Assembly: GCA_012521575.1 (NCBI GenBank)
Contig: JAAYMD010000048.1
Location: 1 to 40,061, forward strand
Reading direction: 5' to 3'
Origin: Mollicutes bacterium
Lineage (GTDB): Bacteria > Bacillota_I > Bacilli_A > RF39 > UBA660
DNA: 40,061 bases
Under the pieces are notes generated by a model that saw nothing but the letters and a program-made list of their open reading frames with translations, did not search any database and was not told the origin of the DNA. The translations under genes and the position numbers were made by a program. Positions 7,000-11,304 of this stretch are shown here, one piece after another (the stretch's first letter is position 1; the number at the start of each line of letters is the position of its first letter).

Positions 7000-8241
7000 A
7001 TGAGAATAGGAATGTTTACTGATACTTATCCTCCGTTTATTAATGGGGTATCTACCAGTATTGTAGTTTTAAAAAAAGCTTTAGAGAAAAAAGGTCATGA
7101 GGTTTTTATTGTAACTGTTAATAATGAAAAAATTGGGTATGATTTATCCGATAAAAAAATTATTAGAATTCCTGGCATCCCAGTTGGTATTTATGATTAT
7201 CGATTATCAGGAATATACCCAATTAAAGTTATTAAAAAAATCAAAAAGCTTAATTTAGATGTTATTCATTCTCATACTGAATTTGGTGTTGGAACTTTTG
7301 CCCGACTTATATCCAAACAATACGATATACCTTTAGTACACACTTATCATACGATGTATGAAGATTATATTTCATCTGTAACTAAAGGATATCTTGACTG
7401 GCCAAGCAAACCAATAATTGCAGAATTAACTAAATTTTATTGCGATAAAACATCTTCTGAATTAATTGTTCCAACGAAAAAAACATATGATTTATTTAAG
7501 AAAAAATATAAAGTAGATCGTGATGTGCACATAATACCTAGTGGTATTGAAATAGAAAAATATTTTCGAGAAAATTATAATAAAGAAGATATTGAAGCTT
7601 TAAGAAAAAAAATGGGAATTAATAAAGAGGATTTTGTTATTTTATATGTTGGACGTTTAGGACAAGAAAAAAATGTAGAGTTTTTAATTGATGCCCATGT
7701 CGCGCTTGCAAGACAATATCATAATTGTAAATTATTAATTATTGGGGATGGACCGTTAATGGAAAAATTACAAAAAAAGGTTAGGTGCTATCGAATTGAA
7801 GAGTCTGTTATTTTTGGAGGAAAAGTTCCTTATGAAGAAGTAGGAATTTATTACCAGTTAGCTTCGGTTTTTGCAACGGCCTCAACTGCCGAAACGCAAG
7901 GATTAACAGTTATTGAAGCGCTTGCTGCATCGCTTCCAATAATTGTTATTAATGATGAAAGTTATGAAAGTGCTGTAGAAAATGAATATAATGGTTTTGT
8001 TTTTAAAAATAAAAGAGAATATCACAAACGAATTAAATTCTTAATGCAAAATCCTGATATTTTAAAAATAATGAAAGTTAATGCGCGAAACAGCTCCTTT
8101 AAACATTCCGCTGATTATTATGCTGATAGAGTGTTAGAAGTATATAAAATAGCTGTTGGAGATCGAAAAGTTAATGAAAAGAAAACTTATTTTAGTCGAT
8201 TGAAAAAGGTGGTGAGTGATAGTTGGAAAATAAAAAAATAG
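7000..8241 (+). CDS. Family 4 glycosyltransferase, probably 1,2-diacylglycerol 3-alpha-glucosyltransferase-like
   Basis: MRIGMFTDTY.P..NGVSTS, HTYHTMY, VGRL..EKN, ETQGLTVIEA (EX7E). Confidence 0.85.
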   Translation: MRIGMFTDTYPPFINGVSTSIVVLKKALEKKGHEVFIVTVNNEKIGYDLSDKKIIRIPGIPVGIYDYRLSGIYPIKVIKKIKKLNLDVIHSHTEFGVGTFARLISKQYDIPLVHTYHTMYEDYISSVTKGYLDWPSKPIIAELTKFYCDKTSSELIVPTKKTYDLFKKKYKVDRDVHIIPSGIEIEKYFRENYNKEDIEALRKKMGINKEDFVILYVGRLGQEKNVEFLIDAHVALARQYHNCKLLIIGDGPLMEKLQKKVRCYRIEESVIFGGKVPYEEVGIYYQLASVFATASTAETQGLTVIEALAASLPIIVINDESYESAVENEYNGFVFKNKREYHKRIKFLMQNPDILKIMKVNARNSSFKHSADYYADRVLEVYKIAVGDRKVNEKKTYFSRLKKVVSDSWKIKK

Positions 8242-8957
8242 TTGTTGGTAATTTAAAATCAACGATGAATATAGAAGATGTAAGCAAATATTTACAGGTA
8301 ATAAATAAAGAAATTGCTAGCAAAGAAGTTATTATTTGTCCATCTAGTATTTATATTCCTTATTTTTTAAAGAAAAATTATCAAGTGGGTCTACAAAATA
8401 TTTTTTTAGATGAAGGGGGTCCATATACTGGTGAAATAACACCCACACAAGCTGTTAGTCTAGAAATAAGATATGCAATTGTAGGCCATAGTGAAAGAAG
8501 AATTCACTTAAATGAAACAGATGAAATAATTAATAAAAAAATAGTTGCAGCAATAAACAAAAATATGTATGTCATTTTATGTATTGGTGAAACTTTAGAA
8601 GAAAAAGAAATGCTTAGAACAGATATGGTAATTAGAAGACAGCTTGTTAATGCTTTAAATGGACTTTCAATAGATATGCTTTATAATGTTATTATTGCCT
8701 ATGAACCAGTTTGGGCGATTGGTACAAATAATATTCCAAGTATTAAAGAAATTGAAAAGACGGTTGAATATATAAAAAATGTTGTAAAGCAAATAAGTGG
8801 TTATGAAGATATTAAAGTCTTATACGGTGGAAGTGTTAATGAACATAATGTTAAAGAATTAAATAAAATAAATAATATTTCAGGATTTTTGGTTGGTGGT
8901 GCATCTACCAAAGCAGATAGTTTTTTAAAAATAATTGATGAAGTCATTCAAAAGTAA
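8223..8957 (+). CDS. tpiA: Triosephosphate isomerase
   Basis: GN(L)K, GHSERR, AYEPVWAIGT, YGGSV, LVGGAS; TTG start behind AGGTGGTG. Confidence 0.96.
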   Translation: MENKKIVVGNLKSTMNIEDVSKYLQVINKEIASKEVIICPSSIYIPYFLKKNYQVGLQNIFLDEGGPYTGEITPTQAVSLEIRYAIVGHSERRIHLNETDEIINKKIVAAINKNMYVILCIGETLEEKEMLRTDMVIRRQLVNALNGLSIDMLYNVIIAYEPVWAIGTNNIPSIKEIEKTVEYIKNVVKQISGYEDIKVLYGGSVNEHNVKELNKINNISGFLVGGASTKADSFLKIIDEVIQK

Positions 8958-8968
8958 TGACTTTTTTT
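8941..8968 (+). terminator. Intrinsic terminator after tpiA
   Basis: AAGTCATT-loop-AATGACTT plus T-run. Confidence 0.75.
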
Positions 8969-9243
8969 GCTTTTTATGATTTTTTTTAAATATTTAATAC
9001 CTAGTTAAAAACACAAAATTTATATTTTTTTAATTTTAGGTAAAATAAATTTTAAAATGCAAAGATTTTTTTAAAATGATTTATAGAATAAATTATAGAT
9101 TTCAATAAATTCATTATTATAATTGTCATATTAGATAATAAGTATAAATTAGAAATATATGATTATATTAAAATTAGGGATTGAAATGTATGAAAAATGC
9201 ATATTTTTATAATAACATAATGCAAAATATTTTGATTATCACG

Positions 9244-10062
9244 GTGAAATACATTAAAAATATAAAAAGTAGAGCGCTTTATTATTATGATAGTAATAGT
9301 AGTGCTAGCAATAATTATGGCAATAACTGTACCATTAGTATTAAATACAATAGAAGAAGCGAAAAAAGGAGCTTTTAAAAGTTCAGTATATGCAATGGTA
9401 AAAGCCGTAGAATTAGAATATATAAAGCAAGTATTACAAGGTGTAAAAACAAATGAGATAATTTACACCTATGAAAATGGAGAAGAAACATCTAGTATAG
9501 GTAAGCAGTTAGGAATAAAAGGAACAAAACCAAAAAACGGAGAAATAAGAATAAACAATGAAGGAGAAGTTGCATTAGCAATCCATGATGGGACGTATTG
9601 TGCTTTACATTCATATAATGTATATCCCATTTTGCAAGTACAACCCATAATATTTATGGAATATATGATATGAGTGACGGAGCTTGGGAAAGAGTAGCAG
9701 CATATATAGATAATGGAAATAGTTATTTATCAAATGGCCAAAGCATAATAAATGCCAATTCAAAATATAAGGATGTATATATAATGGGAACAAGTGATAC
9801 TCAAGCAGATAATTATTTAACAAATGCCAATAAATATGGAGAGGCTATATACGAAACAAGTAATGGAAATGATAGTTCTAATTCGTGGTATAATGATTAT
9901 TCACGCATGCCGTATTCTGGATATTCATGGTTTCCGCGTGGCGGCCGTTATGACAGTGATGTGAGCGGTGGTGTGTTTAGCTTCAGCCTAAACGATGGTG
10001 ATGTATTCTCATATTACAGTTTTCGCCCGGTAGTTATTGCTACTACAATTTCTGCACCATAG
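9244..10062 (+). pseudogene. Disrupted type IV pilin-like gene fused to a CLec/FGE-like C-terminal domain (DGR-target type)
   Basis: 9287-9630 encodes a pilin helix (IVIVVLAIIMAITVPLVLNTIEEAKKGAF) with the G|FTLxE site degraded; a second frame open from 9619 reads ASTTHNIYGIYDMSDGAWERV...SWY.DYS..P....WF.RGG.Y......GVF.F....G......SFRPV; one extra T in the run at 9630-9633 would fuse the two frames. Confidence 0.7.
9901..10035 (+). other. Candidate DGR variable region (VR)
   Basis: Hand counts: 9901-10030 is 23/130 A and 64/130 GC, vs 55/120 A and 32/120 GC in 9721-9840; A-free scaffold codons interleaved with NNC/NNT codons; ends in SFRP. Confidence 0.65.
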
Positions 10063-10281
10063 CTAAAGCATAAAAGGTTTTTTCTTGTTTTTTTGACAAA
10101 AGCCCTGCCGTTTAGTAGGTGGTGTGTATTGAGTAGTGGTGAATAAGATCATGAAATTTGAAACTATGATGGTACATGCGATTGGCATAAAAAGGTCTAA
10201 ATGATGAAAATTTTGTAAATATATTTTTGAAACGAATAATATTTTTTGGAATATTAAGTAAGCTTCGTATATAATGATTAG

Positions 10282-10316
10282 GAGACTAAAATAAATTTTT
10301 TTAGTCTCATTTTTTT
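10282..10316 (+). terminator. Intrinsic terminator upstream of spo0A
   Basis: GAGACTAAAA...TTTTAGTCTC followed by a T-run. Confidence 0.65.
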
Positions 10317-10361
10317 GTAAAAAATTGATGAAAAAATTTTGTTTCTAAAAGATATTTTAAA

Positions 10362-10418
10362 TCCGACAAAAAAAGATAAATTATTCTCTAGTCAAAAAAT
10401 GTAAAGGTGTGTTATAAT
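10362..10418 (+). promoter_or_regulatory. spo0A promoter region: 0A-box-like site and extended -10
   Basis: TCCGACA (reverse complement TGTCGGA, 6/7 to TGTCGAA) at 10362-10368; TGtTATAAT at 10410-10418. Confidence 0.45.
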
Positions 10419-10456
10419 TAAGATACGTGAGTGCAGTACTTTGAAGGGAGAATGAT

Positions 10457-11221
10457 ATGGAAAAAATACGTGTTTTAATGATTGACGATAATGTCAATCT
10501 AGTTGGAATGATTAAGGAGTACTTTGGCAGTCACGATTTTATTAGTATCGATTTTGAGGCCTATGATGGGGCAGAAGGAATCGATCTGATTGAAAAAAAA
10601 CAGGAGCAGTATGATGTAATCATTTTAGATTTGATCATGCCTAATAAGGATGGAATGTATGTTTTAGAAGAAATGAAAAAAAGGGGGATCGATAAGAAAG
10701 TTATTGTTGCCACTAGTTATAATGCAAATGAGATTATTAGGGAAGTATCTGAATATGGTGTTAGTTACTTTATCTTAAAACCATTTGATTTAGCTGATTT
10801 GGAAAAACGAATTATCGAATGTCAAAATAAAGAAAAAACCAGAAAAGCAATTGACTTTCACCATAACAATTTACAAATATCGATTAGCAGAATTTTGCAC
10901 GAATTAGGTATACCTTCCCATATAAAAGGATATCAATACATCAGAGAGGCAATTACAATTATATATGATAATCCTGAGATAATTGGTGGCATAACTAAAG
11001 AACTCTATCCTGAATTAGCAGAAAGGTTCGACACTATTGTTTCAAGAGTCGAACGTGCTATTAGGCATGCCATAGAAGTAAGCTGGAATAGGGGCAATTG
11101 GGAGATGATGGAAGAAATTTTTGGGCATAGTGTTGATATTGATAAAGCTAAGCCCACTAATTCTGAGTTTATCGTTACCATTGCCGATAAGTTAAGATTA
11201 GAGTATCACAAAGTAGGGTGA
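10457..11221 (+). CDS. spo0A: Sporulation master regulator Spo0A
   Basis: Receiver domain (DD, LDLIMP, KPFD) plus the Spo0A C-domain [38 protein letters not shown]. Confidence 0.97.
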
Positions 11222-11230
11222 TTAACTTTA

Positions 11231-11255
11231 GGCATGAATAAATCATGCTTTTTTT
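11231..11255 (+). terminator. Intrinsic terminator after spo0A
   Basis: GCATGA-ATAAA-TCATGC plus T-run. Confidence 0.75.
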
Positions 11256-11259
11256 CAAT

Positions 11260-11287
11260 TTGACACATTTTTTTAAAGAAGTATAAT
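11260..11287 (+). promoter_or_regulatory. sigma-A promoter
   Basis: TTGACA-N16-TATAAT. Confidence 0.65.
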
Positions 11288-11304
11288 AGATTTGGGTGAT
11301 TTTT

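Follow-up and report, generated by a model that had tools for sequence, protein, structure and literature searches.

Is the short adenine-poor, GC-rich segment near position 10000 of contig JAAYMD010000048.1 a variable region (VR) of a diversity-generating retroelement (DGR), and if so, is it still being rewritten? The contig belongs to assembly GCA_012521575.1 of a Mollicutes bacterium, and the whole stretch that was analyzed, its positions 1 to 40,061, is called the window here. DGRs mutate the adenines of a template, so that AAY codons (Y, pyrimidine) of the template become NNY codons in the target. A first-pass annotation had proposed that positions 9901 to 10035, at the tip of a pilin-associated lectin-like domain, were written in this way by a chromosomal DGR that diversifies pilus adhesins. 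Our answer, to which we give a probability of about 85%, is that positions 9911 to 10062 are a retired (fossil) VR at the 3′ end of a pseudogenized member of a multicopy gene family. This reading is carried by homology to a template repeat (TR), the pattern of decay relative to that TR, the breakage of the gene, the invariance of the segment across populations, and the fold of the family.

The compositional shift that drew attention to the segment is real. Positions 9901 to 10030 contain 23 A, 27 C, 37 G, and 43 T (GC, 64 of 130), against 55 A and 32 G or C in the 120 nucleotides (nt) from 9721 to 9840, as first described. The assembly to which the window belongs (G000) has 936 kb in 95 contigs, 27.7% GC, and 97.8% completeness. 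When a 130-nt frame was slid across it (n = 92,413), 0.40% of the frames had at least 64 G or C, 0.22% had 23 or fewer A, and 0.024% combined 23 or fewer A with at least 60 G or C. Merging the frames with at least 62 G or C of 130 gave 28 islands, of which 9901 to 10031 is one; an island on contig C1 reads as rRNA. The unusual codon endings were also borne out: in the 45 codons of 9901 to 10035 the fraction of third positions occupied by G or C (GC3) is 0.42 and that occupied by A (A3) is 0.16, versus 0.17 and 0.38 in the preceding 77 codons of that frame and 0.16 and 0.40 in long open reading frames (ORFs) genome-wide. Because GC3 changes this much within one ORF, the signal lies at synonymous sites. 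The protein motifs named earlier occur in frame, IYGIYDMSDGAWE followed by WFPRGG...SFRPVV. An open frame does contain the segment, but what had been taken for one ORF is the 130-codon tail (9670 to 10062) of a gene broken across two frames.

The TR was found with a degenerate pattern built from the GC-rich copies of the segment and scanned against viral, genome, and metagenome contig collections. The pattern had no match in the viral and genome contigs and matched two metagenome loci, one of which is L042. Read on its reverse strand, L042 runs from the end of a target gene with its VR through a GC-rich element of ∼180 nt and an AT-rich spacer with a TTGACA/TATAAT-like promoter to a second copy of the VR, then through ∼190 nt with a terminator-like hairpin at the end to the start of a small MutS-like (MSL-like) gene. 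This second copy, 152 nt long, is noncoding (stop codons lie just upstream), has 13 AAY codons in the frame of the VR, and carries A wherever the VRs vary; on these features we identify it as a DGR TR. In G000, the first 126 nt of contig C6 (C6:1-126) are identical to it at 126 of 126 positions.

Positions 9911 to 10062 align to the 152-nt TR without gaps, 91 of the 152 positions being identical. All 13 AAY codons of the TR have been replaced, and 12 of the replacements still end in C or T; that none of the 13 is AAY any longer indicates that the segment descends from adenine-specific rewriting. To this extent it is a DGR VR, as had been proposed, but it is not a current one. In the core, 19 of the 34 TR adenines are changed, and so are 29 of the 92 non-adenines (15 of these changes are C>T and 6 are G>A). 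In the tail, the segment departs from the TR at 13 of 25 non-adenine positions; the tail of the TR is repeated unchanged in the VR of L042, is matched by the copy on C53, and has a single difference in the copy on C25. The mismatches are thus not confined to adenines, as they nearly are in C25 (Table 1). Among the scaffold changes, synonymous third-position transitions are common (TAC>TAT, TCC>TCT, TTC>TTT, GGC>GGT, TCG>TCA, AGC>AGT, and GTG>GTA), and this mostly synonymous C>T and G>A pattern suggests that the copy spent a period as a frozen but functional protein under selection before the gene broke. At non-adenine positions the scaffold is ∼69% identical to the TR, and the upstream flank is 71 to 81% identical to paralogs; since the scaffold is no closer to the TR than the flank is to the paralogs, the TR is not homogenizing the window copy. 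The search proposed earlier, for a near-copy of the segment with A at the mismatches, succeeded in part: the noncoding TR of L042 and the 126 nt on C6 exist. The latter are the only trace of the family TR in the window's own genome. A template closer to the window's own scaffold was not found in the assembly: BLAST returned just C44 (68%) and C25 (69%), and an adenine-tolerant scan gave only A-rich junk with 31 to 37 adenine mismatches per 60 nt. A repeat search inside the window found no partner for the segment.

The sister copies show what rewriting without decay looks like. With tblastn we found eight C-terminal domains of the family in G000, in the window and on contigs C36, C55, C93, C53, C25, C44, and C6, and each copy was scored against the TR at 34 adenine and 89 non-adenine positions of the core (Table 1). 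The copies on C25, C53, and C55 read as near-perfect adenine-only derivatives of the TR, and those in the window and on C36, C44, and C93 are decayed. Four of the eight domains lie at contig starts, and several of a dozen prepilin-type N termini lie at contig ends; evidently, the repeats of this family broke the assembly. Two length changes occur in VRs that are otherwise altered only at adenines: C53:155-200 (L011) has an 18-nt in-frame duplication of a GGC-NAC-TAC-NNC-NAT-type stretch, and the VR of L042 lacks one GGC codon.

Table 1. Features at the window locus, elements downstream of VRs, bridging contigs, and VR copies compared with the TR of L042. Coordinates without a prefix are window positions.
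Feature	Coordinates	Strand	TR adenines changed	TR non-adenines changed	Remarks
N-terminal piece of broken gene	9287..9673	+			128 codons; pilin-type hydrophobic helix and first beta-sheet region
C-terminal piece of broken gene	9619..10062	+			Other frame; first ATG at 9670 (130 codons); last ∼147 residues of FGE-type lectin-fold domain
Probable fossil VR, mutable core	9911..10036	+			TR positions 1 to 126; gapless alignment to TR of L042
Probable eroded counterpart of GC-rich tail (IMH-like VR end, through stop codon)	10037..10062	+			Alignment to TR tail
Probable decayed remnant of GC-rich element that trails fresh VRs	10063..10175	+			Alignment and DNA folding
GC-rich element (C25)	L003:157-345
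GC-rich element (C53)	L011:272-462
GC-rich element	L042:932-1118	−
GC-rich element	L010:3520-3705	−
GC-rich element	L009:1-105
Bridging contig X1	8200-10683				7 differences
Bridging contig X2	8685-10666				5 differences
Bridging contig X3	9063-11300				4 differences
Bridging contig X5	9343-11300				8 differences and one gap at 10296
VR copy, C25			14/34	1/89	Fresh
VR copy, L042			17/34	4/89	Fresh
VR copy, C53			17/34	5/89	Fresh; plus 18-nt in-frame duplication
VR copy, C55			11/34	8/89	Fresh; non-adenine changes mostly toward 3′ end
Copy, C6			0/34	0/89
VR copy, window			19/34	28/89	Decayed
VR copy, C36			18/34	25/89	Decayed
VR copy, C44			15/33	35/88	Decayed
VR copy, C93			18/34	45/88	Decayed

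The GC-rich element of ∼180 nt, of which there are at least five copies, begins in each case at the stop codon of a fresh VR. It contains two perfect hairpins, one with an 11-bp stem and one with a 6- to 7-bp stem and the loop GAAA or TTTT. In the DGRs of phage BPP-1 and of Legionella, recognition of a target requires an IMH (initiation of mutagenic homing) sequence and a downstream hairpin. The fresh elements fold stably as DNA (C25, −19.9 kcal/mol, z = −5.56; L042, −23.0 kcal/mol, z = −6.5), versus −3.2 kcal/mol and z = +0.83 for the remnant in the window, where 165 of 200 shuffled sequences fold as well; the window copy has neither a GC-rich IMH-like tail nor a hairpin downstream of it. Rfam has no family for the element (E ≤ 1), and the window has no Rfam match at gathering thresholds. 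RNAalifold on four copies of the element gave just three pairs with double changes, the copies being too alike for a claim of covariation. On C16 (C16:36-290, L009), a copy of the element is followed directly by a stub of a reverse transcriptase (RT) gene and then by clpC; the stub (C16:105-278) encodes an RT N terminus homologous to residues 38 to 97 of the RT of a related genome, G011 (E = 2e-8). A shorter RT stub at the end of C46 (L010:3520-3627, minus strand) also directly follows the element. These arrangements suggest that duplication of target ends took with it the region downstream of the VR, up to the start of the RT, or else that they are what is left of an older, decayed cassette.

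The window gene is itself broken. Its two pieces (Table 1) are out of frame with each other, and ∼260 codons are missing between them, corresponding to residues ∼115 to 377 of the intact 520-amino-acid paralog on C93, which begins MIKKRNLGFTIFDL. The N-terminal piece is 78% identical to a paralog on C45 that starts KKGFTLIE and 71% identical to one on C40 that starts RGFTLIE. In the window copy, the prepilin leader (M..KKGFTLIE) is missing, a stop codon lies seven codons upstream of the ATG, and the hydrophobic helix is not preceded by the class III signal peptide (G/FTLIE) of type IV pilins. At the other end, roughly the final half of the FGE-type domain is all that is retained; relative to a 33-sequence family alignment, the conserved HPAFTFG...GKFE block and most of the invariant residues are gone. 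We classify the gene, from its sequence, as a truncated and frameshifted pseudogene remnant. The family does end in a lectin-like tip behind a pilin module, as had been suggested (see below), but the window gene is not an intact example of it. The close paralogs of the N-terminal piece, C45:852-523 and C40:1149-2235, also have in-frame stops, the former after ∼150 residues and the latter at "QVL*GT"; either several family members are broken or there are assembly errors at C45 and C40.

The broken arrangement is shared among populations. Positions 8200 to 11300 are carried by at least 20 sequencing runs from 12 studies of anaerobic digesters, biogas fermenters, landfill, and compost. We compared contigs from four runs of four studies; in each run one long contig, spanning 2.0 to 2.5 kb, bridges the window gene (Table 1). 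The broken arrangement is the same in all four, and no indel is listed inside the gene. Within 9901 to 10035, the listed differences number two, 10027 C>T and 10033 G>A, both of them in X2, and adenine mutagenesis makes changes of neither type. The strain variation that had been anticipated at the NNY codons did not appear: the differences listed for the contigs of these four runs show no concentration at adenine-templated positions. At 99.7% identity over the four samples, the gene is no better conserved than its flanks. At position 9677, A in the window, the contigs from all four runs have G; the change (GAC>GGC, Asp>Gly) brings back the YDMSGG motif of the adhesin family, and this count includes short paralog contigs besides the long bridging ones. 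A pile-up of depth at 9240 to 9863 proved to consist of short paralog contigs and is uninformative about copy number.

A positive control for this comparison is the copy on C55. The ortholog of contig C55, L043, is 99.67% identical to that contig over 13,668 nt (45 differences), with 10 differences in the ∼105 nt of the VR versus 33 in ∼13.3 kb of flank. At C55:241-272, eight of nine differences fall at TR adenines, from which it follows that rewriting has reached at least one sister VR since two very close strains separated. Rewriting that continues at the window copy, as first envisaged, is contradicted by the loss of the hairpins, by the invariance in four studies, and by the truncation and frameshift of the gene.

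Relatives have the machinery that such rewriting would need. The same-genus genome G001 carries a full cassette in the order target-TR-MSL-avd-RT, and 31 of 54 residues are identical between its MSL and the MSL-like fragment of L042. Genome G104 has a target, a TR, avd, and an RT, its TR-VR pair having been found by an adenine-tolerant scan, and in G011 a target, avd, and an RT stand on one contig, with no TR within 3.2 kb of them. The VR ends of G011 match ∼20 other places in that genome, which probably also has many dispersed targets. Among 80 family loci that were fetched, 7 have an RT no more than 6 kb downstream. Intact homologs of the G011 RT occur in 35 of 200 other genomes of the same taxonomic family (one per genus) and in G001, and RVT_1 matches occur in 15 of 24 genomes sampled from that family. 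A DNA search of the genus with the TR-like stretch gave a single weak match. Two other same-genus loci, L023 (G002:C115) and L024 (G005:C13), have a different DGR, in which the TR codes for an N-rich end ("...SVRCV") and continues in frame into the ORF of the RT; by these sequences, more than one DGR type would be circulating in the genus.

Several observations weigh against our reading or narrow it. In G000, a search for RVT_1 gave no match at E ≤ 1, and neither avd nor an MSL ortholog was found; only the RT stub on C16 stands in for the enzyme in an assembly broken by repeats. Among longer proteins, 12 candidates for a full-length close relative of that stub included none at E ≤ 1e-3, which is weak evidence. 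A working DGR in this organism is thus a claim that would rest on relatives, on L042, and on the strain variation of C55. In our view, the cassette was probably missed in assembly or binning rather than lost from the organism, because L042 runs from the TR into MSL and because repeats fragment the metagenome-assembled genome. The flanks of the TR of L042 have no match in G000, and the full TR comes from a contig of another organism. As to the 126 nt on C6, we had read them as a nearly unmutated VR, but that candidate was weakened by their identity to the TR, by their opening with the TR's own first bases, and by the eroded VR tail without hairpins that follows; it is at least as likely that TR reads were wrongly joined to a decayed target tail. 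The excess of changes at adenines in the window copy is modest (19/34 versus 28/89; one-sided Fisher P = 0.012). Lastly, contigs drop rare variants, and 66 less-supported differences fall outside the listing used here, so that low-frequency variants of the VR are possible. What had been offered as refutation, the absence of both a TR and a DGR RT from the genome and its relatives, is half the case: the assembly lacks an RT, but it holds a stretch identical to the TR, and relatives hold cassettes. The wider proposal, of a chromosomal DGR that diversifies pilin-associated lectins, draws support from the adenine-only sister copies and those cassettes and is limited by the missing RT.

Against this background, four other explanations can be weighed. 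That the segment is a remote VR still being diversified by a chromosomal DGR would account for the homology to the TR, the NNY codons opposite its 13 AAY codons, the fresh sister VRs, and the strain variability of C55 at TR-adenine sites, and DGRs can act on remote targets (PMC5758913). However, homing would reset the non-adenine changes of core and tail, and with eroded hairpins, the same sequence in contigs of four studies, and a gene truncated and out of frame, we hold this highly improbable. A template of another kind, namely, a second, diverged and AT-richer TR outside the assembly, is formally conceivable; it would match the T-ending scaffold that is partly common to C44 and C36. In its favor, AGTTTTCGCC / GGTTTTCGCC is common to the window, C44, and C36 at a place where AGCTTCCGGCC is found in the fresh copies, and the assembly is fragmented. 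Moreover, C55 and its ortholog L043 depart from the TR in shared ways at non-adenines but are unlike each other at adenine sites, a hint of more than one version of the template. No such repeat turned up in the assembly by the BLAST and adenine-tolerant searches described above, though, and the VR is invariant across four studies, and the shared changes are C>T and G>A, as AT pressure predicts; we consider a second TR very unlikely.

It is scarcely credible that the segment is unrelated to any DGR and owes its composition to amino acid constraint in a lectin fold or to a horizontally acquired GC-rich patch. The scaffold residues W, F, R, G, and P do favor codons rich in G, C, and T, and the assembly has no RT, but the nucleotide homology to a noncoding TR runs without gaps through the stop codon into the downstream element, GC3 differs sharply within the same ORF, and the family repeatedly adjoins DGR cassettes. 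Just as hard to credit is a live gene whose ORFs, of 128 and 130 codons, yield separate products or are linked through frameshifting into a short pilin-lectin protein. The arrangement is kept without indels in four studies and both frames stay open for ∼130 codons; nevertheless, the leader with its GFTLIE motif is missing, about half of the FGE-type domain is absent, and the identity over four samples is no higher than that of the flanks.

What the window copy once belonged to can be seen in the intact family members: a type IV prepilin leader with its helix comes first, then a conserved middle domain, and last a lectin fold whose final ∼45 residues are the VR. An AlphaFold model of the C93 protein, made with the 33-sequence alignment (pLDDT, 90.3; pTM, 0.80), has an N-terminal helix at residues 11 to 58 and a beta-sheet, followed by globular domains. 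Its best matches in the PDB are TaqVP (5vf4, E = 8.5e-10), Mtd (1yu0, E = 6.4e-4), and TvpA (2y3c, E = 2.9e-3); PvdO (5hha) and FGE (6xtp) also match. A profile of seven family sequences matches 5vf4 at E = 4.1e-4. With Pfam FGE-sulfatase, C93 is below the cutoff (E = 0.21; 11.7 bits versus 23.3), and two of seven members match (best E = 3.4e-5); one of the seven matches N_methyl. The model and profiles point to an FGE-type C-type-lectin fold for the intact family, with the VR at its C-terminal face. The GFT motif is present in 9 of 12 N-terminal matches in G000 and in 25 of 35 N termini of relatives. The genome encodes a prepilin peptidase (Peptidase_A24 at C55:9150-9479, 57 bits) and PilB-type assembly ATPases (T2SSE at C55:9825-10961, 406 bits, and two more), and the proteins are putative pilus tips that may be incorporated into filaments. 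Relatives of the family occur in at least 594 stretches of species-representative genomes; among 80 of these, the titles are mostly "Bacilli bacterium," with "Mollicutes" and "Tenericutes" metagenome-assembled genomes, Clostridium sp. CAG:762, Coprobacillus sp. CAG:605, and "Ca. Fimihabitans" as well.

The label "spore-forming" given to the lineage fits its gene content, with gene names read from translations and not from a family search. The window holds Spo0A (10457 to 11221) and two tandem genes for alpha/beta-type small acid-soluble spore proteins (474 to 752 and 849 to 1100) that form a 172-nt direct repeat with 82% identity. A SpoIIGA-like gene on C25 is accompanied by a sigma-factor-like start that, as in the spoIIG operon, is presumably sigE. 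These sporulation genes stand in a genome of ∼0.94 Mb.

Put in order, the events that we infer for the fossil VR would be as follows. In keeping with DGR biology, the TR of ∼152 nt would be transcribed from its own promoter and copied by the DGR RT together with Avd and the MSL protein, adenines being misread, and the cDNA would replace the VR of targets that have a matching GC-rich tail and hairpins. The window copy would once have been written in this way or duplicated from a copy that had been, and this origin would have given it its A-poor, GC-rich, NNY-codon makeup. It would then have lost the GC-rich tail and hairpins, whereupon rewriting ceased; mostly synonymous C>T and G>A changes would have built up under the AT pressure of the genome; and the leader and ∼260 central codons would have been lost last.

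Beyond this locus we advance a broader proposal, tentatively and at somewhat less than even odds. A multitarget DGR in these ∼0.94-Mb, spore-former-type Bacilli may recruit and retire pilin-tip adhesins by birth and death. The competence to be rewritten would reside on a portable module of ∼340 nt (VR, GC-rich tail, two hairpins, and RT 5′ stub), copies of which would now stand at five or more loci (C25, C53, C16, the end of C46, and L042), and erosion of the tail and hairpins would freeze copies. If this is true, the graded series from fresh (C25, C53, and C55) to fossil (window, C36, C44, and C93) could be used to time the decay of retired VRs.

The window itself, as a dead copy, is of little significance. 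It does illustrate that composition alone (loss of A, high GC3, and NNY codons) can flag DGR-written DNA despite ∼30% decay of the scaffold and that calling such a site active first needs a comparison with the TR and a check of populations. At the level of the genome, the interest lies in an MSL/Avd-type DGR with prepilin-leader, FGE-type lectin targets in very small Bacilli-type genomes of digesters, landfill, and compost, where fresh and fossil VRs side by side are material for studying how DGR targets retire.

Among known systems, the modular type IV pilins of Streptococcus sanguinis likewise have a binding domain grafted onto an N-terminal pilin module, much as the C93 model has globular domains after its helix and sheet; there, no DGR is known to be involved, and the grafted domains have other folds. 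A DGR that diversifies the binding tip of a pilus-borne protein is reported in a Bacteroides preprint, where the adhesins are those of type V pili; both the pilus class and the phylum are different, the leader here being of the type IV prepilin kind and assembly into a filament putative. In the literature searched, whose supplementary tables lay outside the search, no paper describes DGR targets with a type IV prepilin leader. In PMC11661182, a G-type pilin domain is listed among scarce DGR target domains, and PMC10221324 brings up DGRs in one context and type IV pili in another; the prepilin-leader architecture of targets is barely mentioned in print.

Closer parallels exist for the fold and the cassette. 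TaqVP (5VF4), the variable protein of a Thermus aquaticus DGR, has an FGE-subtype C-type-lectin fold with a C-terminal VR (PMC6328139). It is the best match of our family by both profile and fold, and its VR also lies at the extreme C terminus, but it is a single-domain prophage protein, whereas the family here adds a pilin N-terminal module and a middle domain of ∼150 residues, and identity is ∼15%. MSL is an accessory gene that co-occurs with avd in "Architecture D" DGRs, and DGRs with up to seven nonadjacent targets are known (Wu et al., PMC5758913). The TR-MSL-avd-RT order of G001 is of this architecture, as is the TR of L042 followed by an MSL-like start; the difference is that MSL, avd, and RT were not found in the window's assembly. 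The same source describes the Treponema denticola DGR, with TvpA and seven nonadjacent targets. That system shares with ours one template, several dispersed paralogous targets, and a C-terminal VR on an FGE-type C-type-lectin fold; it differs in that our targets start with a type IV prepilin leader and helix and lie in a ∼0.94-Mb Bacilli-type genome whose assembly lacks an RT and in which the window copy is decayed and broken. What we describe is thus a DGR of known architecture, with dispersed targets on a known fold, and the window holds one retired copy of such a target.

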